Positions 45,089 through 64,000 of a stretch of 64,000 bases of DNA are shown here, one piece after another (positions within the stretch are counted from its first letter, which is position 1; each line of letters starts with the position of its first letter). Under the pieces are notes generated by a model, which was given only the letters and a program-made list of their open reading frames with translations, ran no database searches and was not told the origin of the DNA. The stretch lies in the IMG/VR virus record IMGVR_UViG_3300042508_000526; one strand, 5' to 3'. This stretch comes from a virus. Taxonomy: Duplodnaviria; Caudoviricetes. Both the position numbers and the translations under genes were made by a program.

Positions 45089-46969
45089 TCAGGGCTTCCA
45101 CCCGCTAGTTGTACCCGTCACGCCAAACTGCTCGCCTTGGGCTAAAGACGGCACATAACTGCTGCCGGCTGTATCGCTACTTAACCCCCGGTGAACGCTA
45201 TTCATAAGCCCCTTTTCCTGATATGAGCCCAGCATTCGGGTCATCCAGTCAGGGTCGTTCGAAATGTTTGCCATGCCGCGCACCATTTCGGGTTGGAACG
45301 GCGGCGGCTCTTTGTGGGCTTGTATGTTTTTAATTCCGTACTTATTCAGGTTGTTCAATACCCCGCGCCCGATTTTTGTGCCGATCGAGTAGTGCAGCAC
45401 CGGTTTTTCGAGGTAATGGCCTGTTAGCGTTTGCGGGGCGCCAGCCACACTACCTTCACGCGGCGTCCAGTTTCTCTCCAACATCGCGTACGGCACAATG
45501 TCGTCCGGCGCATAATTCCCGTACTCGTCTGTGAGGCGCACGTGATTTACAAGTCCGCGGGATAGCAGCTCAATATTGCGGCGATGCGCTCCGATGCCGC
45601 TATTACCCATAACTTGGCGCATAGCTTGCACAAAATAGCGCCGCCCTTCGCCGATACCCTTGTGCTTTACGATTTCCGACGGATTCGGCATTCCGTCAGA
45701 TAGAACGTCGCCAGCCTCCAGATCATCACCCTTTTTGATCGCCAACGATCTTTCCGTCGGCACATAATGATCTTGGCCGTTAATTTGCACGTAGTATCCG
45801 CCCTGCGGAGCCGGCCTGATTTCTTGCACGCGGCCATCAGTTTGGGCGTGTGCGGCGCCGTCCGGGTATTTCTTCGGGACCTGTACAAGGGCGTTGAGCG
45901 CTTTAAAACCCGAGATTGCGCCAGCGCCTCCGACGCCGCCAGAGTGTTTCGAGCTAATCTGGCTCTGTGTGACAGGTTCAGACAGCGCTTGGGCCGCAGC
46001 GATACCCACATAATCTCCAGCCGGCGGTAAACGGCCTTTTTCTCTAAAACCGACATCGCGCGCGTATACGCCGCCATCAGCCGGGCCTCCTACGATTGGG
46101 CTACGCACAAGAATATCTTTTGTGCCCATCTCTTTGATGTCGCGCAGGATCTTGGGCGTTAATACGGTGTTGCGCTTGTACGGCCCGACAGGACGCGCAA
46201 GTAACGCGCCTTCGTTGTCCGGGTCGTCAACATCGGTCGGATAACCACGCTCTAGCGCATCAGCTTTTCGGTCTTCATCATCGTCGTCATCGTCGTCGGC
46301 CGTGACCAGCAAACGATGCGTCATCTGCGCGAGCTGTTTACCGTAGAAACCAGCGTCCGCAGTCGCCGTCTTAAGATCGATAACACCTTTGCGCGTGCCG
46401 AAAGCGCCGGCAAAATACTCGACAGGTCGTAGCCCCTGCCCGTAGCCGCGAAGAACGGGAATTGGAATTGGATCGCCGCGGTGATCCAGATACTGCATGT
46501 CTGCGCCGATCAGCGAATTCAATTGATATTTATTGCCAACGCCAGAGCCAGTGATTTGATGCACAAGCGGATTGTCTTGCGACTCGGCTTCTTTGTACAC
46601 CTTGTCGAGTAGTTCCGACTGCGTGTTAGCGGCTAATTCCAGCAGTTTTACTTGCTTTTCTTTGTCGCCCAATTTCTTGTTCGACAAGATTTCTTGCATT
46701 GCGTGCTGCGTGCGGATCTGCGCCGCTTTAACGGCCAATGTCGGCCGAATGTGCTTCAGGCTAAACGACAGCCCTGCGCTAGAATATCCCGCGTCCTTGC
46801 CGACGTCGTGCAGCCGCTTCATTACATCCCGGTACTTGTCGGGATGCTTTTGTGCTAGCTCAGTGGCTAGCGCGCCCATGCTTTTCTTGGTTAATACCCG
46901 ATCGTAATCCCGCATTTCTGGCGGGAGCGCGTCGTTAATCAGGATTTGACCAAGCGTTGTTTTAAGCAT
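45089..46969 (-). CDS. rpoC: RNA polymerase beta' subunit, C-terminal half (626 aa; start moved to ATG 46969)
   Basis: TTLGQILIN; bridge helix FGTRKGVIDLKTATADAGF; trigger loop AAQALSEPVTQSQISSKHSGG; HRRNIELLSRGL; WMTRMLGSYQEKGL. Confidence 0.92.
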   Translation of the reverse strand: MLKTTLGQILINDALPPEMRDYDRVLTKKSMGALATELAQKHPDKYRDVMKRLHDVGKDAGYSSAGLSFSLKHIRPTLAVKAAQIRTQHAMQEILSNKKLGDKEKQVKLLELAANTQSELLDKVYKEAESQDNPLVHQITGSGVGNKYQLNSLIGADMQYLDHRGDPIPIPVLRGYGQGLRPVEYFAGAFGTRKGVIDLKTATADAGFYGKQLAQMTHRLLVTADDDDDDDEDRKADALERGYPTDVDDPDNEGALLARPVGPYKRNTVLTPKILRDIKEMGTKDILVRSPIVGGPADGGVYARDVGFREKGRLPPAGDYVGIAAAQALSEPVTQSQISSKHSGGVGGAGAISGFKALNALVQVPKKYPDGAAHAQTDGRVQEIRPAPQGGYYVQINGQDHYVPTERSLAIKKGDDLEAGDVLSDGMPNPSEIVKHKGIGEGRRYFVQAMRQVMGNSGIGAHRRNIELLSRGLVNHVRLTDEYGNYAPDDIVPYAMLERNWTPREGSVAGAPQTLTGHYLEKPVLHYSIGTKIGRGVLNNLNKYGIKNIQAHKEPPPFQPEMVRGMANISNDPDWMTRMLGSYQEKGLMNSVHRGLSSDTAGSSYVPSLAQGEQFGVTGTTSGWKP

Positions 46970-46970
46970 G

Positions 46971-47210
46971 TTACTTTGGCCAGATAATTTGCTGCATTGG
47001 CTTTGGCTTGAAATCAGATACGACAACCGTTTTTTCGATGCCAAGCGCCCGCAACATCGAATGGAAATCTGGCTCACCCGGCGTGGAATACACGATCGCT
47101 TCGTCTACTTGAATAGCGACGAAGATCGGATTGCCCAGATCGTCTTCAACTACAACACTGTGCGCTTTCTGCTCAGTAGGTTGTAATTTGTGCTGCGTTT
47201 TAACGAGCAT
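46971..47210 (-). CDS. Hypothetical protein (79 aa) between the RNAP genes
   Basis: Coupled to both neighbours (TAACATG to rpoC-C). Confidence 0.65.
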   Translation of the reverse strand: MLVKTQHKLQPTEQKAHSVVVEDDLGNPIFVAIQVDEAIVYSTPGEPDFHSMLRALGIEKTVVVSDFKPKPMQQIIWPK

Positions 47211-47950: not shown

Positions 47951-50900
47951 TTACTTATTATCTTCCACAATATGAACCGGGGTGTCTACCTCTATTTCGC
48001 CGCGCCGATACGCCAGCACGGCGTCTTGCCGGTTTCTAAACACGCGCGGCTTGGCTTTGTTATTGATGCGGCTAGACGCCACGTATAAGCCAGTTTGATA
48101 GTCTTTATTGGGCACGTAGTGCGCCCGGAAGCTCGACGCCGCGAACAGATTTTTACTCGGCAGCATCTTGTCGACAGCTTCTTTTGCTGCATCTTCAGTC
48201 GACGGCACGTGATACTGCATAGCGTCGCCGTCAAAGTCGGCGCCGAATCCCTTTGTGATAACGGGGTTTACTTCCATGACCTTGTTCTTTGTTAGCCGCG
48301 GGTAGAACGCCATCATTCCATAGCGATGCAGAACCGGCGCGCGATTGATGATAATTGGCCGGGAATTCATTTGCTTGTCTAGCTCGGCCGCTGCTTCTTT
48401 GTTCTTTTTCTCAACCGCTTCCAATGCTTGCATGCGCGGTAACCCACGGCGCACTAGCCCGCGCACCACAAACGGCTTGTAGATATCCCACGCCTTTTCT
48501 TCGGGCAAGGCCACCTGATCCATGTCTAGATCGGGGTTTGGCGTAATTACCGCGCGGCCGACGAGGTCGACCGTCGAGCTTAATAATTTGCGCTGCACAG
48601 TGCCGTACTTTGGTGACGCCCCAAAAATGTGGCGTAAAAACCCTTTTACGTTTCGTTCAGCGTTTTTGGGCTGCTGCGGTTCGCCTAGGCCAGTCACGCC
48701 CTTCATTGCGTCGTACACACTGAGTCGCTCGTCGCCGTACTCAGCTAGTGCGCCGGACGTATCTTTCAGCGTGTTGTTGGCGTCCAGCAACTCCTTGTAT
48801 AAGTAATTTGCGTCAGCTACGAGCGGCAGCTTTTTGCTGCCCATCGTACTAACGGGCCGAAACAGAGGCGGCAGCACCGGCACGCGTGTTAGCATCCAGT
48901 CTTTTGGATGCACGCCGGTAGACTCCGCACTCTTTAAAAAGCCAAGCCGTCGTACCGCTGCGTCGCGTAACGTTTTTCGGCCGGATTTGATATCTTCGCG
49001 CGCCTGTTCAATGGCCTTTGGCAAATTGATTTTGGCTAGCGCGTCTGCAATCGCTTTTGGGCCGGTTTGGTCGCCAAGCTGGTCCGTACCCGCTAACACG
49101 CCGCGAAATTTTTTCTCCGTCAAGCCCAGCACGCGGCGGATCGGATCTTCCATCACCGGATTCGGCATGGGCTCGTGTAATGTTATTTTTGACCATCGGT
49201 TACCGCCGTGGCCGCCAGTAAGTGACTCGTCGAACAGGCCGCCCTTGATCGGCTTAAGCCTGCCCTTCCAGTCAACCGTCTCGGCGTTTTCGATTTCACG
49301 TGCGCCGGCTAATCCGTCGACGTCTTTGTCTGTAAGCGCCATAACGTTTGTGCGTGTACCGCTGCGCACAACGTTAATGCCAGACGCCTTCAGCTGCCCG
49401 ACAAACTTTTCGTATACGTGTGGGACGCGCGGAAGCGGCGGCGTGTAACCGGCCATGAACTGCGACCAGTACTCTGGATTAGCTTGGCCGCGCACCATCT
49501 TGGCGTCACGAATTACTTTGCCAGCGCCGTGCGACAGCAAGGCGCCAAGATCCAACATGCCAACCCGCTTAGCGCCTTCTGATCCACCCTTCGCCGGAGT
49601 GCCTTCCGCGGTGTATGCGCCCGTTGCACGCCCCTGCGCTTTGGACTCGCTGGTGTGATGCAGTTTCATAAAAAAGCGCGAGCCGGTAAGCACACCCGGA
49701 ATCTTTCGACCTGTCTCCGGGTCGGTTAAGTCTTCTGTATCAGATAACCCGTTCCTGTCTAATTCTTTCTGCGCAAACTCGACAAGATCTTTCTGGTCAT
49801 CGAAGTCTTTGATCTTAAACGGCTTGCCAGTCTTTGCGGCAACTTTGCCCAACGCCGCCTCAATAACCTGCGCCGGATTAACACGCGAAATTAAACCTAG
49901 CGGGCTAACCAGCACCTCGAACGGATTGCCGTCTTTGTCTTGCGGCATCTGGTCATCGGGGATGATGTCTGCCACAACGCCTTTATCGCCAAAGCGGCCT
50001 GTAAGCTTGTCGCCAACGTCCATCGCGGCTTGGTTTTTAACAACGACGCTCACGCCCTTTTTTGTGTGCACAACGTCCGTAACGACTCCGGGCGCATGGT
50101 GTTCCCACGTCACCGTCTCGTTGGTGAAGCTGCCCGCGCGGCCGCGATGCACTTTGCCGTAAACCGTGTCTTTTTTCTTAGCTACCAGCACCAGCGGATC
50201 GCCAAAGTTAACTGTGGTGCCCTTTTTAATTGCGCCCTGATCGTCAAAGTTGTCCAGCATCTTGCGCTCGTATTCGCGGGGGAAAAGACTCACGAACGCC
50301 TTTTTGCCAACGTGAGTGTTATCGTCCCATTCCGCTTCGTGCTGGTACATGTGCTCTGACGTAAGCCGCTTGGCCGCAGACTCGGAGATCACTACGGCGT
50401 CTTCGTAGTTTTTGCCGCGAAAGGGCAGATAAGCTACGCGCATGTTCAGACCCAGCGCGGCGCTCCCTTGATCGTCCGTAAAGTTCGACTTGGCAAGCAG
50501 CTGTCCCGGCTTTACGTAATCGCCCGGTTTAACCAGCGGCGTTTGATGTAAAAACGTTTTTCGGTTGTACGGCATCTCGTTGTACAGCTCGATCGTTTTC
50601 TTTTCGCCGTTCTTGTCGCGCAGCACGATCGCATCTGGCGTAACGTCGACAACCTGCCCGGCTTCAGCCGCTCTCGCCGCGCCAAGCTTTTCGCCCATCT
50701 CGTCTTCGTGCGATACGTTTTCATCGTCAAACTTGGCCGACTGCACAAGCGGCGTTTGGGCGCCAACGAGCGGAAGCGCCTGCGTAAACATGCGACTACC
50801 CATGATCACGCGCTGCCCTTTAACCATGGCTTTCATCGGCACCATGTTTGTGAGCGCAGAAAACGTCGAATCCATGTTTGACAGGCTGTACTGCGCATCT

Positions 50901-52378
50901 TTGCGGTCGACGTACTTCATCTTGCCGTTTACAAGCGCAGCCACTACCGGCATTTTGTTATTTGTCTCGCCCGGGAACACGAGCGGCGTATCCGCTAGTT
51001 CCTGCGGCGTCTTGTATTCCGTCTCACCTGTTTTCATGTTGATCACAGGCGTGTACACCTTCCCATCGGCGCCCTTCATAGCGCCCCGCGCAAACCGCAT
51101 ATCAACGCCAACTTTGCCGGACTCAGGCGTGCGCAGATAGTCGATAAAGCCCAGATGGCTGGGCTGCACACTGCGCGACTCTGCCGGCACGGCGTCGAGT
51201 GACGCGATGCCGCCTTCGCCCATTCGCGTAACGCGTGTTTGGTGGTCAAAAATTTCGGCGGGGTTGATCTCTTCAAGACTCGATCCAAGACCAGACCCGA
51301 TCAGCGCAGCAGAAATCGCTTTATCGAAGACGCCGCTCGGAATGTGATCAATCGACTTCTTCGCCGTGGCTTTCCACAGCAACTTGTTTAAACCCTGCCG
51401 ATCTTTGGTGAAGCGCTCAGAGATGAGATCCTCTGGCCCGACGACAGATTGAAACACCATGTTGTCGCGGTCGTCACTCTCGGCTTCGCGTCGGTTAACA
51501 GCTAGCAGCTTTTTTGTAATTGCCAGAATGGTGTCTGGCGTCATGTTTTTGTATTCGCTACCTAGCGTGCGGCGTGTGACTTCAGGATCAAGCTCTGTTT
51601 TGGCAAACTCTTCAAGCAACGCCTTGGCTTTGATCGTGGCGTCTGCTCCGGCGACTGGTTTATTCACAAAGCGACTGTACAGCTTGTCGAGCGTACCGGC
51701 GTCGCCTTTTTCCATATTGACGGCCGTTATCTCGTTGCCCCACGCCTCGCGGATCTGGCTGTCCGTAACGCCCATGGTTTTCAGCAGCGGCATTAGCGGA
51801 ATCTGCGCCTGTCCGACGCTGATTTTAAACACGCCCGTTTTCGGATCTAAAAAGTAACGGTGCGAGCGGCCTTTGCCCGGCAGTGTGTTTACGTGCGCTT
51901 CGATTTCGCCGTTGTCTTTTTCGCGGGTGAAGACGCCGGACTTAAGCCGCATCTGATGCGCCAGCGTGTACTCGACACCGCCGTTGACGAACGTGCCAGC
52001 ATCTGTCAGATAAGGCACATGCGCGATAGTTGCACGCTTCTGCCCAAGCGGCTGTCCGGTTTTGTTATCAACTAGCGCCCACGTACCCTGTAAACGACGC
52101 GACAGCGAGCCGCGCGAGAGCACTGCCTTTTTTTGGTCGGCCCGCGTAAATCGTTCGGGCCCCGTGTAGCCGACGTCTTGCAGCTGCAGCGTATACAAAT
52201 CGTTTTGCAGCGGGCGCAAACCCTGCGCGCTTGTCAGCGCCTGATTGAAGATGTTGTCGCGCATCGAGCCGATGTCGCCAAACGTCCGCATTGGTGGCGG
52301 CGTTGTCGGCGGCGCTGTCGGCACCGCGGGCGGCTGGCTGCTGAACTGCTTCAGCGGCGGCAATTCAGGCGCTGGCAT
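47951..52378 (-). CDS. rpoBC: RNA polymerase beta subunit fused to beta' N-terminal half (1475 aa)
   Basis: beta motifs: RTPESGKVG, GKNYEDAVVISE, GDKLTGRFGDKGV, FMKLHH. beta' motifs: PVLPPLFRP, VDLVGRAVI, NRAPVLH, GADFDGD. Single ORF. Confidence 0.95.
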   Translation of the reverse strand: MPAPELPPLKQFSSQPPAVPTAPPTTPPPMRTFGDIGSMRDNIFNQALTSAQGLRPLQNDLYTLQLQDVGYTGPERFTRADQKKAVLSRGSLSRRLQGTWALVDNKTGQPLGQKRATIAHVPYLTDAGTFVNGGVEYTLAHQMRLKSGVFTREKDNGEIEAHVNTLPGKGRSHRYFLDPKTGVFKISVGQAQIPLMPLLKTMGVTDSQIREAWGNEITAVNMEKGDAGTLDKLYSRFVNKPVAGADATIKAKALLEEFAKTELDPEVTRRTLGSEYKNMTPDTILAITKKLLAVNRREAESDDRDNMVFQSVVGPEDLISERFTKDRQGLNKLLWKATAKKSIDHIPSGVFDKAISAALIGSGLGSSLEEINPAEIFDHQTRVTRMGEGGIASLDAVPAESRSVQPSHLGFIDYLRTPESGKVGVDMRFARGAMKGADGKVYTPVINMKTGETEYKTPQELADTPLVFPGETNNKMPVVAALVNGKMKYVDRKDAQYSLSNMDSTFSALTNMVPMKAMVKGQRVIMGSRMFTQALPLVGAQTPLVQSAKFDDENVSHEDEMGEKLGAARAAEAGQVVDVTPDAIVLRDKNGEKKTIELYNEMPYNRKTFLHQTPLVKPGDYVKPGQLLAKSNFTDDQGSAALGLNMRVAYLPFRGKNYEDAVVISESAAKRLTSEHMYQHEAEWDDNTHVGKKAFVSLFPREYERKMLDNFDDQGAIKKGTTVNFGDPLVLVAKKKDTVYGKVHRGRAGSFTNETVTWEHHAPGVVTDVVHTKKGVSVVVKNQAAMDVGDKLTGRFGDKGVVADIIPDDQMPQDKDGNPFEVLVSPLGLISRVNPAQVIEAALGKVAAKTGKPFKIKDFDDQKDLVEFAQKELDRNGLSDTEDLTDPETGRKIPGVLTGSRFFMKLHHTSESKAQGRATGAYTAEGTPAKGGSEGAKRVGMLDLGALLSHGAGKVIRDAKMVRGQANPEYWSQFMAGYTPPLPRVPHVYEKFVGQLKASGINVVRSGTRTNVMALTDKDVDGLAGAREIENAETVDWKGRLKPIKGGLFDESLTGGHGGNRWSKITLHEPMPNPVMEDPIRRVLGLTEKKFRGVLAGTDQLGDQTGPKAIADALAKINLPKAIEQAREDIKSGRKTLRDAAVRRLGFLKSAESTGVHPKDWMLTRVPVLPPLFRPVSTMGSKKLPLVADANYLYKELLDANNTLKDTSGALAEYGDERLSVYDAMKGVTGLGEPQQPKNAERNVKGFLRHIFGASPKYGTVQRKLLSSTVDLVGRAVITPNPDLDMDQVALPEEKAWDIYKPFVVRGLVRRGLPRMQALEAVEKKNKEAAAELDKQMNSRPIIINRAPVLHRYGMMAFYPRLTKNKVMEVNPVITKGFGADFDGDAMQYHVPSTEDAAKEAVDKMLPSKNLFAASSFRAHYVPNKDYQTGLYVASSRINNKAKPRVFRNRQDAVLAYRRGEIEVDTPVHIVEDNK

Positions 52379-57130: not shown

Positions 57131-57952
57131 TCAAGTTTGCGGCACCAGTACATACGGCCGACCGTTAATCACAATAGTGCCGTTAATTTGCAGTCCAGCA
57201 TCTTTTGTAATCGGATAAACCGCGGTGCGCTTTCCGTAAAGTTTTATGATTTCGGCGATATCGCCTTCTTGCGGTTTTGTTACGTTCGGATCGTAGTAGG
57301 GCGCCATCAGGTTACCCGCGTTTAAATGCGGTAGCCCCAACGCGTGCCCCAGCTCGTGACAAATAACAGCAACAGCCATGTTGAACGACCAGTCTTCCGC
57401 TTCGTCGAACATCTGATCAAGCTGGACGTTTTCGGCTACACCGCACGGCAACTCGCTCCACGCCAGTGTGCCGCCCTTGTTATCTAAACCGTTTTTCTTT
57501 CCGACACCGGAGCGCGCATAAATGTTCGCCTTGGTGTGCGTATCGACGCGCTGCGGCTCCAGCGCACACACCTCTGCCCACTGCGAAAACGCAATGTCGT
57601 AGGCTTCGGCCACCTGCTGTTCTGTCAGCCCCGGCAAATGGATTTTGTGATAGTACGTCACATTCGGCATCGGCCACTTGCACGGATCGCCGCCCGGAGC
57701 GGTGATATTGAAGTCCGGCAGACCGCAGCGCCGCTTGTTGATGCGATGCGCTGTCTTGGGGCCCACAGTACCTGTGGGGTTTAAGCCGTTAAACGACTGG
57801 AAGGCGCGGATCGCTTTTTGCAACTCCGCGCCTTTAATCTTCTTGACCTGCGCCAGCGTTTTATCGCCGAAATACCCCAGCGCATGCAGCCGCGTGAGAA
57901 TCTCGCTGATCGGTAAAACGTGGGTTTCGTGAGCGGTTGGCTTCCGTGCCAT
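57131..57952 (-). CDS. Pro-matrixin (M10 metallopeptidase) with PGBD-like prodomain (273 aa)
   Basis: AIRAFQSFNGLNPTGTVG (PG-binding-like); cysteine switch RRCGLPD; HELGHALGLPH zinc motif; Met-turn LMAP. Confidence 0.9.
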   Translation of the reverse strand: MARKPTAHETHVLPISEILTRLHALGYFGDKTLAQVKKIKGAELQKAIRAFQSFNGLNPTGTVGPKTAHRINKRRCGLPDFNITAPGGDPCKWPMPNVTYYHKIHLPGLTEQQVAEAYDIAFSQWAEVCALEPQRVDTHTKANIYARSGVGKKNGLDNKGGTLAWSELPCGVAENVQLDQMFDEAEDWSFNMAVAVICHELGHALGLPHLNAGNLMAPYYDPNVTKPQEGDIAEIIKLYGKRTAVYPITKDAGLQINGTIVINGRPYVLVPQT

Positions 57953-57973: not shown

Positions 57974-58381
57974 TTAGCGCGCGGGAGCCAGTTCCATTAG
58001 CCCAGCAGCCGCGGCATCATCAATTGTATCACTTAGGCTGTACACAGCACCCACAACTGGATTATCACGCGTATAGGTCGTGCCAGTCTTTGCGCAATGT
58101 TCTCGCCATAAATTATTTAACCGACGGCGCAAGCGCATTAACTTCCGCGGCGGCAACGTGCGAAGCTCACGCATGTTTTGCGCAATAGATTCGTCCGAGT
58201 TTTGCTCGCGGCAGTGAATGATTACCTGCACCAACACCGAGATAATCATGATTACGAGAATCGGATCAAACTGGCAGTTCTCGTTATCTGCCTGCAGCAC
58301 AAGCTCATCCGTGAGCTTGCGTTGCAGGTCTTGCAAAGCCGGAGACGCAGCGATCCGCTGCTGCAGTTCTTCGGTGGTCAT
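57974..58381 (-). CDS. Hypothetical protein with central hydrophobic helix (135 aa)
   Basis: PILVIMIISVLVQVIIHC; TGATG coupling. Confidence 0.6.
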   Translation of the reverse strand: MTTEELQQRIAASPALQDLQRKLTDELVLQADNENCQFDPILVIMIISVLVQVIIHCREQNSDESIAQNMRELRTLPPRKLMRLRRRLNNLWREHCAKTGTTYTRDNPVVGAVYSLSDTIDDAAAAGLMELAPAR

Positions 58382-58752
58382 CAGTTCGCAGTCCTTTCAG
58401 CGCGCATCTTCTCGACAGCCACGGCTTCCATGTAGCGATACCGCGCATCAATCATCTGGGCACGCAGCTCAGTGCGACCAGCCAGATACTTCCAAATCAG
58501 CGCGCTATTGAGCACAACAATCTGCGTTGCGCCGACAATCGCCGTCACAGCCTTGGTCAGCGTCTCGGCCTGCGAGGTGTCAACCCATCCAACCAGAACG
58601 CCCACCGCGATCAGATTGCTGACAGCGCCCACAGCCATGGTCCAGAATTCCGGCGTCAGCCAGTTTCCGGTATCTACGTTCACATCGTCAGCGGCGCTAT
58701 TTAAAACGCGCAGCTCTTCGCGGACAGTTTCAACGCTTTTTTTGATCGCCAT
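58381..58752 (-). CDS. Two-TM membrane protein, holin-like (123 aa; start moved to ATG 58752)
   Basis: WLTPEFW then two hydrophobic helices and a charged C-terminus; AAGGAG RBS. Confidence 0.45.
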   Translation of the reverse strand: MAIKKSVETVREELRVLNSAADDVNVDTGNWLTPEFWTMAVGAVSNLIAVGVLVGWVDTSQAETLTKAVTAIVGATQIVVLNSALIWKYLAGRTELRAQMIDARYRYMEAVAVEKMRAERTAN

Positions 58753-58818
58753 AACACGCTCCTTAAGTAACGAGGAAAGCACATTATGCCCCGGATATGT
58801 TCCGGCTGCAATACGTTT

Positions 58819-59854: not shown

Positions 59855-60118
59855 TTAGTGCGCAACTGAAAAAACGAAGCGAAGTGCCAGCGAAATCCAC
59901 GCAAGAAGTCCGCTGATAGCTAAAAAAACAATAATCGCAGTCAGCAGCGCCACGCTACCCAGTTTTTCGAACGGAATTTTTTTAAACAGGTTCCACGCGC
60001 GCAGGTAATCAATCGCGTTTGGGGGTTTAGGCGGCGGTGCGGGCGCAGGTACAGGCTCGGGTTTTTTGGTATCGATCCCTAGAGCTTTTTTGATCATGTC
60101 GAGCAGCGGTGTGGCCAT
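59855..60118 (-). CDS. Small membrane protein with Pro-rich linker (87 aa)
   Basis: PEPVPAPAPPPKPP plus C-terminal TM; TAATG coupling. Confidence 0.6.
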   Translation of the reverse strand: MATPLLDMIKKALGIDTKKPEPVPAPAPPPKPPNAIDYLRAWNLFKKIPFEKLGSVALLTAIIVFLAISGLLAWISLALRFVFSVAH

Positions 60119-61425
60119 TATTTCTTCCCCCAACGAGAGATAGTGTCAAAAATATCATTGCCGTAAAGCTGCACAATCTTGTCCGTGGGGTTCATTTGCG
60201 GCAGCGTGCCGTTAATCGCCATCTGCGCCACTTGATAACGATAGTTTGGGTCAAGCTGCGACCGGTACAAGTGTGATTTATGCCGCGCCGCCATAATAAA
60301 GTCGCCGCGCTGTTTGGCCTTGAGCAAATGATCGGTCACGTTTTGAAAAACGGGCTTACTGTGGTCGTAGATAAGCGGCTCGCGGAAGTTCAATAGGTTG
60401 CGAAACTGTTGCCCGTACACGCTAGCGCCAGCTTTCTCTATTTTTTGGACTTTTTTGTAGTAGTCGGGGTCTTCGGACAAGTGATCCTTGGCAATTTCTT
60501 TGGCAACTTGACCATTGTCTGTGTGTTCGCGCTCATGTTTAGCTCCTTCAGCTAAAGCAGGTTCAGAAAAATCCCGATCGGGTAAATTATCGGCTTCACC
60601 GCCCGGTAACAGGTCTTTTTGTCCCGAACGGGAAAGTGCGTTTGGCTGCTGTTTTTCTGCGGCAGATACCTTCTCGGCGGCGCAGCGGCCGGATTTTTTA
60701 CACACGCACGTTTCAGGGCACATGCACGGACCGGAGCAGCCACAGTCGTACGTGGTCTTATCATCCGCGGCGGCTTTGAGTTCTCCCCTGCTGATGGGGT
60801 TACTAAACCTATGCTCGTCGGCGCTTTCGGCCGAGGTTTCGGAACCCTTGGCCGTGCCGTTGTCGCGTAAAACGCCTTTGCGCCGGACAGCGAATGTGAT
60901 GTGAAACGGTTGATCGTCCTTGGGCAGCGCCGAAAGGCCGTAACTCTTGCGCAAGGCAGACAGCGCCGGACTGAGCACATGTAGCGCCCATACTTTGCTG
61001 ACGCCGCGCACGTTTTTGACGTCAATTTCTTTTAGGCCGCCCAGCGTATAGCCGAACATGTGACCGCGTTCGTTAATCTTGTCGCCGCCGATTGCTTCTA
61101 CTTCAGCCGCCGTCATCACCGAGATGTGCGCATTGACCAACTCGCCATCGACGTTTGGTACATTCATCACGCCGGCAGTCGGCAGCTCAGTGCCGGGCTC
61201 GGTAAGGGCGTCAAATACACCGCGGACGAGCGCGTTGGGCACCGCCAGCAGCAACCAGCCGCTTTTTGCGAGATATAGCCGACCCGAAAGCGGGTAGCTC
61301 GTGGCGGCGTTCTTGTCGCCGCTCATATACAGCCAGCCTAGCGCGTTGCCAGCAGCGTAGGCGGGGTGCTCGCGGAAGTATTCCGAGTCCCACGCGAGCG
61401 GATCTAAAGCGGATAGCGTATCCAT
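60118..61425 (-). CDS. Multidomain protein: 2H phosphoesterase + Cys cluster + DUF5661-like domain (435 aa)
   Basis: Two HxS/T motifs (HISV 61117-61128, HITF 60892-60903); CGCSGPCMCPETCVCKKSGRC; GAKHEREHT...AKEIAKDHLSEDPDYYKK. Confidence 0.75.
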   Translation of the reverse strand: MDTLSALDPLAWDSEYFREHPAYAAGNALGWLYMSGDKNAATSYPLSGRLYLAKSGWLLLAVPNALVRGVFDALTEPGTELPTAGVMNVPNVDGELVNAHISVMTAAEVEAIGGDKINERGHMFGYTLGGLKEIDVKNVRGVSKVWALHVLSPALSALRKSYGLSALPKDDQPFHITFAVRRKGVLRDNGTAKGSETSAESADEHRFSNPISRGELKAAADDKTTYDCGCSGPCMCPETCVCKKSGRCAAEKVSAAEKQQPNALSRSGQKDLLPGGEADNLPDRDFSEPALAEGAKHEREHTDNGQVAKEIAKDHLSEDPDYYKKVQKIEKAGASVYGQQFRNLLNFREPLIYDHSKPVFQNVTDHLLKAKQRGDFIMAARHKSHLYRSQLDPNYRYQVAQMAINGTLPQMNPTDKIVQLYGNDIFDTISRWGKK

Positions 61426-61441: not shown

Positions 61442-61517
61442 TGGCTGCCTGAGTAGGACTCGAACCTACGACCCGGCGGTTAACAGCCGCCTGCTCTACC
61501 AACTGAGCTATCAGGCA
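61442..61517 (-). tRNA. trnN: tRNA-Asn (GTT)
   Basis: 76 nt; acceptor stem TGCCTGA/TCAGGCA; D-arm TAGCTCAGTTGGTAGAGC; anticodon arm GGCGG-CTGTTAA-CCGCC; GGTTCGAGTCC T-loop; encoded GCCA end. Confidence 0.97.
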
Positions 61518-62901: not shown

Positions 62902-63918
62902 TCACAAAATCTTGGCCGCAATGAGACAACCGCGCGCGACCGCATGCAGCGGATCATTGGCGTGACGTACTTCTTTGACCGGCAGCGGAAAACCATGCTC
63001 GTCAAGTTTCTTTTGAAACATTTCAACGAAGCCTTTAGCGCGTGTCGTGCCGCCGGCCAATGTTATCAGAATCGGCTCTTTGAACTTGGGCAGAGCTTTG
63101 TGGCCCTGTAACGCGTGCGCAAGCATCTTCACGGTGTAATCGATCAGACGCTCGTAGTACACGCTAACAGCAGACAAAATTGCGCTGTCACTCTGCTCGC
63201 CAATCACAAACGTGCCGTGCTCTTTCTCTGCCTGCACAACTGAATCCGGCTCATTTGTGGCAACGGCCGTCATGCGGTCAATCCAGTCGCCGGACTTCGT
63301 TGTCGAAAACAGCACGGTGGGTTCGCCGTTGAGCATGACACAGCAATTCACCATGCCCGCGCCCCACGACAAGCCAATGCCGGTGTAATCATCGTTTTCC
63401 AGCTCCGAGTAGCACAGCGCTTCGGCTTCGTTAATCGCCCGGGCCGTGTAACCCTGCTCCGCCAGCACCGTGCGCACAACGTCTTCGTGATACGCGACGT
63501 CAAAATCATCGTCTTCCTGATCGACGGGCTGGGCCGGCACGCAAAAGATCAGCTTTTCGTGCGGCTCGCTGGCGGTGCCGACAACTTCCTTGAGGATAAA
63601 CGCCAGCACGCGCTTGGCTTCTTTTTCCTTGGGGCTAACCACGCCGCGATACATGGGGCGCTTGGCCGAGTCATTGCGCTCAACGGCCTTTTCGATGGCG
63701 TCTTGGCCGAGAATAATAAACGTGCCGTCGGCGTCGCGCACAAATACCTTACCCTGTAGACCTTTTTCGATCATCTTGGTGGCCACGGGGGTCGTCGGCT
63801 TGATGACGTAAAACGCATCGCGGAAATCTTTGTATTGAACGCTGGCCGCGACGGCAGAGTCCAGCGCGTCTTGCGCCAGCACGATAAACGATGTTCCGAC
63901 GTCTAAACCCTTAGCCAT
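62902..63918 (-). CDS. Actin-fold ATPase, volactin/MreB-like (338 aa)
   Basis: Phosphate-1 GLDVGTS; connect-1 INEAEAL; phosphate-2 GLSWGAGMVN; adenosine LAGGTTRAKGF; connect-2 NDPLHAVARG. Confidence 0.9.
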   Translation of the reverse strand: MAKGLDVGTSFIVLAQDALDSAVAASVQYKDFRDAFYVIKPTTPVATKMIEKGLQGKVFVRDADGTFIILGQDAIEKAVERNDSAKRPMYRGVVSPKEKEAKRVLAFILKEVVGTASEPHEKLIFCVPAQPVDQEDDDFDVAYHEDVVRTVLAEQGYTARAINEAEALCYSELENDDYTGIGLSWGAGMVNCCVMLNGEPTVLFSTTKSGDWIDRMTAVATNEPDSVVQAEKEHGTFVIGEQSDSAILSAVSVYYERLIDYTVKMLAHALQGHKALPKFKEPILITLAGGTTRAKGFVEMFQKKLDEHGFPLPVKEVRHANDPLHAVARGCLIAAKIL

Positions 63919-63920
63919 AA

Positions 63921-63998
63921 CTACTTACCTTTCTTCTTGAGTTTCTTTTCCAGCTGCTTAATGTACTTGTTTTGCTTCTGCAGCTTATCGCACTGTTT
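63921..63998 (-). CDS. Partial CDS (3' end only), Lys-rich coiled-coil tail
   Basis: KQCDKLQKQNKYIKQLEKKLKKKGK*, ending 2 nt before the actin ATG. Confidence 0.6.
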   Translation of the reverse strand, partial: KQCDKLQKQNKYIKQLEKKLKKKGK

Positions 63999-64000
63999 TT

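Follow-up and report, generated by a model that had tools for sequence, protein, structure and literature searches.

Introduction

Volactin (VolA; HVO_2015, Swiss-Prot D4GU28) is an actin of the haloarchaeon Haloferax volcanii that in vivo forms dynamic filaments bridging the cytoplasm, with their tips touching the membrane, and whose known phenotype is a cell-shape transition (PMC10869688). It is the closest characterised relative of the protein described here, which is encoded by a virus. The gene lies on the minus strand, at positions 62902..63918, of a 64,000-nucleotide stretch of DNA (hereafter, the window) from the IMG/VR virus record IMGVR_UViG_3300042508_000526 (Duplodnaviria; Caudoviricetes); it starts with ATG and specifies 338 amino acids plus a stop codon. 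Its product is a volactin-family actin of the bacterial type, made by a jumbo tailed phage. We regard it as probable that this phage actin polymerises, and that the tail of a partner protein, encoded just upstream, holds monomers or filament ends at the inner membrane of the host.

To our knowledge, the only well-studied cytoskeleton built by a phage is the PhuZ tubulin spindle of the nucleus-forming phages, and the known phage-borne actins, AlpC and ParM-like proteins among them, serve temperate elements in partitioning DNA. In two partition systems, ParM/ParR/parC of plasmid R1 and AlpC/AlpA of prophage CGP3, the actin gene is likewise accompanied by a small adjacent adaptor gene; in the present case, the C-terminal peptide of the adaptor is predicted to occupy the IA/IIA cleft of the actin. 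Our literature searches for actins of phages and jumbo phages returned PhuZ, AlpC of CGP3, and ParM-like proteins of plasmid-prophages, with no description of the volactin family in phages. Similarly, no phage appeared among the titles listed for volactin, and the founding paper (PMC10869688) contains neither "phage" nor "virus".

Results

Family membership and fold of the phage actin

The open reading frame (ORF) at 62902-63918 is intact, with no internal stop, and occupies exactly the span assigned to it in the original prediction, which had been drawn up from the DNA sequence alone and had proposed a likeness to haloarchaeal volactin. The Pfam profile Volactin (PF25216) matched the translated protein over its whole length (profile positions 1-321 of 321) with an E-value of 1.6e-63 and 215.6 bits, against a cut-off of 35, and a six-frame search of the whole genome with this profile returned the same single match. 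An agreement of this extent lies well outside what chance would produce. The profile MreB_Mbl (PF06723), by comparison, reached 20.8 bits, under its cut-off of 27, and aligned only to residues 67-131 (65 residues). All the signature motifs of the Volactin family (the SxGAGM loop, RPM..GV.SP and GDWID) are found in the phage actin, and they are near-invariant or invariant in 67 members. A PHROGs search assigned the protein to no family, and a sequence search of the PDB gave a weak match to BeeR alone (E 0.017).

Structure prediction with AlphaFold2 (AF2) from the single sequence gave a mean predicted local distance difference test (pLDDT) value of 37; this model was dropped and rebuilt with a 67-row alignment, reaching a pLDDT of 96.3 and a predicted template modelling (pTM) score of 0.92. 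When the rebuilt model was compared by Foldseek with the Swiss-Prot models, the top match was H. volcanii volactin (E 1e-37, template modelling (TM) scores 0.88/0.86, root-mean-square deviation 2.5 Å, 33% identity), a comparison of one predicted structure with another (the AFDB model of D4GU28). The matches that followed, namely salactin (0.65), MamK (0.66) and MreB (0.65), had TM scores of 0.64-0.68 and identities of 16-19%. Among solved structures the nearest were those of filaments: BeeR (8r2n), MamK (5ljv) and MreB (4czj; Caulobacter and Thermotoga MreB), with query TM scores (TMq) of 0.64-0.72. All of these are filament formers, at 16-20% identity to the phage actin. Relatives that form no filaments or are organised differently ranked below them, namely EutJ, PilM and FtsA (TMq 0.51-0.60) and ParM, a weak match (TMq 0.54, 11% identity).

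The profile match, together with a fold for which volactin stands far ahead of every other Swiss-Prot model, shows that the proposed likeness to volactin is real. The protein belongs to the same family as VolA, but this family is not specifically archaeal: it is common in Planctomycetota and occurs in many huge phages. The original prediction had named clustering with non-polymerising ATPases of the actin fold as grounds for refuting it; no such clustering was seen, the nearest solved structures being the BeeR, MamK and MreB filaments.

Nucleotide-binding motifs

Every peptide string quoted in the original prediction is present in the translation. MAKGLDVGT corresponds to residues 1-9, RPM to 87-89, YH to 143-144 and GDWID to 210-214; the protein also contains YYERLIDY, as well as EKLIFCVPAQPVD, INEAEALCYSEL, TGIGLSWGAGMVNCC and HANDPLHAVARG. 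The five motifs of the actin fold that had been recognised in the sequence, including an atypical phosphate-2 loop, could all be mapped to window coordinates (minus strand throughout). Conservation was assessed in an alignment (A1) of 67 rows of relatives, down to about 31% identity.

The phosphate-1 motif GLDVGT (residues 4-9; 63892..63909) carries the invariant D6 and G8, together with T9, conserved in at least 90% of the rows. In the connect-1 motif INEAEA (63418..63435) the conserved Glu164 is invariant. The phosphate-2 loop SWGAGM (residues 184-189; 63352..63369) has G186 and G188 invariant and S184 conserved in at least 90% of the rows, and the same two grades apply in the adenosine motif LAGGTT (residues 287-292; 63043..63060) to G289 and G290, on the one hand, and T291, on the other. 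The connect-2 motif DPLHAVARG (62929..62955), in which G330 is invariant, leads into the C-terminal helix, which forms a wall of the cleft where the partner is predicted to bind. A further motif, GDWID (63277..63291), contains the invariant D211 and D214. The remaining invariant positions are R87, G92, P128 and K232, and N191 is conserved in at least 90% of the rows. The active site is thus intact.

The original prediction had remarked on SWGAGM standing where MreB has DIGGG. The difference from MreB (a DxGGG loop, a Pfam score below cut-off, and 16% identity to MreB models) is real, but the Ser-x-Gly-Ala-Gly-Met loop is the norm of the family, an Asp being found at that place in 1 of the 67 rows; as judged from the alignment, the loop is a trait of the whole family and no oddity of one copy. 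SxGAGM and the other nucleotide-binding motifs of the phage actin are conserved across the family alignment, and VolA probably shares them. In MreB and ParM, the phosphate-2 Asp contributes to hydrolysis. Since a Ser takes its place, ATP turnover in this family may be unusual, which is not in itself a sign of inactivity.

Some relatives bear inteins of the LAGLIDADG endonuclease type, inserted exactly in the phosphate-2 loop, in GDWID (the second intein site), or directly after GMxN. Inteins lying inside nucleotide-binding motifs are the usual mark of sites that cannot change. The intein-bearing genes of the volactin family specify about 700 amino acids; they include P0123, P0135, P0169, P0221, P0261 and P0269, among others.

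The upstream partner gene

An "upstream coiled-coil gene" had been put forward as a possible adaptor for the actin. What was visible of it at the window edge is the last 25 codons and the stop of a 38-residue basic mini-ORF, located on the minus strand between the actin gene and the next gene upstream (window-equivalent positions 63921-64037, L002:191-307, of which 63921..64000, the 3' part, fall in the window). A better candidate for the adaptor is that next gene, whose product is predicted to be membrane-anchored and to end in a conserved tail. This partner gene, also on the minus strand, lies outside the window at the equivalent of positions 64037-64369 (genome 112306-112638; L002:307-639).

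The partner gene is found directly upstream of the actin gene in 75 of 80 related loci, usually with a gap of 1-3 nt. Its product, of about 110 amino acids when counted from the ATG, begins with a hydrophobic segment, continues with a linker that varies and closes with 45 conserved residues at the C-terminus, whose consensus is KI.IDT.K.V..I.T.G..K.....LGKTT..QDDI..SVSKLAQLKGK. Within this tail (residues are given in fragment numbering), L64 and K68 are invariant, while D55, I57, Q66, L67 and G69 are conserved in at least 90% of the sequences. A hydrophobic N-terminal window of 19 residues with a Kyte-Doolittle value of at least 1.6 was present in 40 of 45 distinct partner sequences. A Pfam search of the partner returned no family and no DNA-binding domain. 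The same architecture is seen beside an actin of 53% identity, on a contig with a gene resembling T4 rIIB.

In the phage under study and in its nearest relatives, the distance between the partner and actin genes is 118 nt and holds the mini-ORF, whose ATG overlaps the TGA stop of the partner by one base and whose own stop comes 2 nt before the actin ATG. The mini-ORF is kept in the relatives L003, L005, L008, L010 and L019. Its C-terminus, ..LEKKLKKKGK, bears a loose likeness to the partner tail.

A predicted actin-partner complex

Prediction of a complex between the actin and the partner gave a score of 0.65, compared to 0.00 for the best of three controls. Of 80 solved complexes, 58 reach the mark used for such scores, as do 2 of 110 mismatched pairs; these counts are only approximate here, since we used alignments of our own. 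Contacts agreed between runs to at least 92%, and the pLDDT of the partner was at least 68.

The contacts with the lowest predicted error join tail residues 57-68 of the partner to residues 170-178, 197-198 and 329-337 of the actin, i.e., to the IA/IIA cleft. A second set links partner residues 49-55 to the actin strand at 26-30. In both sets, the residues of the partner that make contact coincide with its conserved residues. The model supports docking of the partner tail in the IA/IIA cleft of the actin, which is less than a demonstration of binding.

Relatives in other phages

Close relatives of the actin were found on 257 IMG/VR contigs, eight of which are 194-205 kb long. Over the 80 loci that we fetched, actin identity ranged between 73 and 100%, and its median identity (78%) was the highest of the region, the neighbouring genes showing values of 41-76%. 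A protein collection contained 2031 homologues, of which the best 120 were all at least 74% identical and several were encoded on contigs of 190-229 kb. After clustering at 50%, there were 964 related clusters, 272 of them at an E-value of 1e-30 or better.

A second viral scan, conducted with another clade, brought in another 270 IMG/VR contigs, with lengths reaching 435 kb, so that volactin-type actins occur on at least about 527 IMG/VR contigs according to the two scans. When the INPHARED phage set was searched by tblastn, no relative was detected in any cultured phage; the only relatives came from a pair of huge phages, both uncultured (LR745208 and LR756511), which belong to other huge-phage clades of volactin-type actins.

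In other huge-phage lineages (L166-L245, contigs of up to 435 kb), the genes upstream of the actin are of other classes, with conserved C-termini of their own. One of these classes has about 80 amino acids and ends in ..WAIPDF..KI.FGK; another has about 220 and ends in ..DNLLQGVADKHEEFVYLLQQR... The pattern suggests that several classes of adaptors exist among the huge-phage lineages.

Relatives in Planctomycetota

When species-representative genomes were scanned with one deep clade, 157 loci were retrieved, some on multi-megabase chromosomes; nearly all were from Planctomycetota and a few from Omnitrophota. Of 301 Planctomycetota genomes sampled, 110 contain a match that exceeds the cut-off of the Volactin profile. 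These cellular actins, members of the same Pfam family (268-320 bits), have acidic N-terminal extensions or long fusions. A genome scan with the acidic representative P0240 returned no relative. In the representative P0162, the volactin-family actin is fused to a Wzz/GNVR and ParA-like BY-kinase module.

The cellular loci also have an upstream partner. In 61 of 80 of them (L083-L162), the actin gene is preceded by a gene for a coiled-coil protein of 230-430 amino acids with a related C-terminal tail, for example ..NLAKLRSLKQG, whereas the phage partner is a small predicted membrane protein. Searching the Planctomycetota loci for the tail motif of the phages with a strict regular expression gave no match; the looser, related tail emerged upon clustering of the neighbouring genes.

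In a quick maximum-likelihood tree, built with no archaeal rows and rooted on Escherichia coli MreB (a very long branch), the Planctomycetota sequences formed a clade with a Shimodaira-Hasegawa approximate likelihood ratio test (SH-aLRT) value of 99, separate from the phage clade (97-98) in which the present actin is placed. We had considered a recent capture of the gene from Planctomycetota; the separation of the two clades, both well supported, speaks against it.

Genomic context of the actin module

The window corresponds to bases 48270-112269 of a 203,206-bp record of an uncultured virus that has terminal repeats (a repeat of 127 bp was found) and is rated 100% complete. Nearly all genes are on one strand. 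The record contains genes of a tailed phage, such as those for a baseplate-J protein, a tail-fibre-like protein and a lysin, which bears out the description of the actin as phage-encoded. The lysin (57131-57952, minus strand) consists of a peptidoglycan-binding domain fused to a metallopeptidase of the matrixin type, and it likely forms a lysis cassette with a small membrane protein that gave a weak holin match (58381-58782, minus strand). The peptidoglycan-binding domain of the lysin indicates that the host is a peptidoglycan-bearing bacterium; volactin, in contrast, is encoded by an archaeon.

The phage also has large genes for RNA polymerase beta/beta'-like proteins (47951-52378 and 45089-47077, both on the minus strand). 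The nearest isolates, at about 31% identity, are Salmonella phage Arash and Vibrio phages D181, D148 and D69, and the 15 best matches listed include none of the phiKZ-like phages. A search of the complete genome for the tubulin domain (PF00091) was negative, whereas the control genomes matched in 13 of 14 cases.

The neighbours of the actin module comprise genes for PhoH, a ferritin-like protein, a PD-(D/E)XK nuclease and a 2H phosphoesterase, besides the lysis genes. The product of the phosphoesterase gene (60118-61425, minus strand) has 435 residues and combines DUF5661 with a 2H phosphoesterase ("Swiss Army Knife") domain; the gene is conserved on the downstream side of the actin in 66 of the 80 related loci. 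Also downstream, at a distance of 1.4 kb from the actin, is a gene for tRNA-Asn (GTT) (61442-61517, minus strand), which shares 93-95% identity with its counterparts in a Pseudomonas phage and in Virus Rctr197k. A tRNA-Asn match was all that a DNA megablast search against phages returned. On the other side, about 2.3 kb upstream of the actin, is a ferritin/Dps-like gene (genome 114421-114954, L002:2422-2955, minus strand), found in 51 of 80 related loci, with the PhoH gene farther upstream. Scans for promoters and terminators gave counts no higher than the shuffled level.

Discussion

A proposed membrane-tethered actin module

The computations establish the family of the actin, its intact active site, its strong conservation, the conserved partner with its architecture and, against controls, a predicted contact between the two proteins. 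From these we infer that the actin polymerises, how the partner sits in the membrane and what the module does during infection, in the following way. The actin would bind ATP through its phosphate-1, connect-1, phosphate-2 and adenosine motifs and would assemble into dynamic filaments, as volactin does in H. volcanii. The partner would be a single-pass membrane protein whose cytoplasmic C-terminal peptide enters the IA/IIA cleft and extends the N-terminal sheet of the actin by a short strand, thereby tethering actin monomers or filament ends to the inner membrane of the host. Filaments anchored in this way might span the infected cytoplasm and help to organise the replication or assembly of the phage or to set its position, or else remodel the cell. 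The behaviour of volactin, whose filament tips touch the membrane, fits a membrane-anchored partner that binds filament ends.

Several points weigh against this picture. The hydrophobic segment of the phage's own partner scores 1.43 on the Kyte-Doolittle scale, a borderline value. The Ser in place of the conserved phosphate-2 Asp may, judging from the alignment, affect how ATP is turned over. Complexes with a peptide in the cleft have been solved for other actins (ParM with the ParR peptide, actin with WH2), so the passing score of the docked model may partly reflect likeness to them. The contact with the partner might also sequester or cap the actin instead of anchoring it. Furthermore, the neighbouring genes point to no clear timing or pathway, no cultured phage in INPHARED carries the actin, and the function of every phage member is a computational prediction.

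Alternative explanations

An unlikely but related account is that the membrane-anchored filaments act on the envelope and take over the shape or division of the host, for example by blocking division or enlarging the cell. The target of the filaments is all that sets it apart from intracellular organisation by a membrane-tethered actin, and the predicted membrane location of the partner would suit both. About 5 kb separate the module from the lysis genes, and the phenotype known for volactin concerns cell shape (PMC10869688), a role that cannot be carried over to the phage actin. However, an identity of about 16% to MreB makes co-polymerisation with the host MreB unlikely, and the genomic context does not link the module to cell-wall synthesis.

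We give little credence to a partition system resembling ParMRC or AlpAC, in which the actin would move phage genomes, or a plasmid-like prophage, by means of an adaptor bound to a centromere. The predicted position of the adaptor tail in the cleft does reproduce the geometry of ParR-ParM. In addition, salactin, a haloarchaeal actin, helps DNA partitioning (PMC10869688), and partition actins of phages or prophages are known, as exemplified by AlpC of the Corynebacterium prophage CGP3 (PMC4446434). Unlike the ParMRC adaptor, however, the partner has a predicted membrane helix and no Pfam DNA-binding domain, its gene is upstream of the actin, and no iterated repeat array occurs within 4 kb of the module, where two-copy matches were at chance level only. 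The combination of a membrane anchor with the lack of centromere-like repeats argues against segregation of the ParMRC type. The genes are those expected of a large tailed phage, no hint of plasmid maintenance turned up in the region, and the relatives of the actin detected by tblastn are confined to the two uncultured huge phages.

It is also very unlikely that the protein is a non-polymerising ATPase of the actin fold (akin to chaperones, kinases, EutJ or PilM) with the partner as its membrane receptor, as PilN is for PilM: PilM with its PilN peptide and FtsA with its membrane partners are indeed among the fold matches and likewise bind a short peptide of a membrane protein, and phosphate 2 lacks the usual Asp, but the EutJ, PilM and FtsA matches are weaker than those to BeeR, MamK and MreB and far below that to volactin, the Ser loop is conserved throughout a family that includes the polymerising volactin, and volactin, the characterised member, polymerises in vivo (PMC10869688).

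Implications for huge phages

Returning to a membrane-tethered phage actin, a broader generalisation can be offered tentatively. Many huge phages, the 200-kb lineage studied here included, may possess an actin cytoskeleton of their own, made of a volactin-type actin and interchangeable adaptors, each of which would insert a short, conserved peptide at its C-terminus into the actin; the adaptor of the present lineage would be a membrane anchor. The filaments would then extend from the membrane across the infected cell and organise replication or assembly, as an actin counterpart of the PhuZ spindle, and the module, being shared with Planctomycetota as well, would be an old and widespread cytoskeletal system of prokaryotes.

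PhuZ is likewise a cytoskeletal polymer of jumbo phages, namely the phiKZ-like, nucleus-forming ones, and the job proposed here, i.e., organising the infected cell, is similar. PhuZ, however, belongs to the tubulin superfamily, whereas the present module is based on an actin and the genome encodes no tubulin domain.

Our results suggest that this phage equips its host cell with actin filaments of its own, tethered to the membrane; no paper that we could search describes such a case. The volactin family, described in haloarchaea, is common in Planctomycetota and in phages. The proteins of the module are small and could be tested by heterologous expression, for which the host need not be known. 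If the proposal is true, a strongly conserved, membrane-tethered actin in large phages devoid of tubulin would represent a second, independent viral way to organise a bacterial cell.

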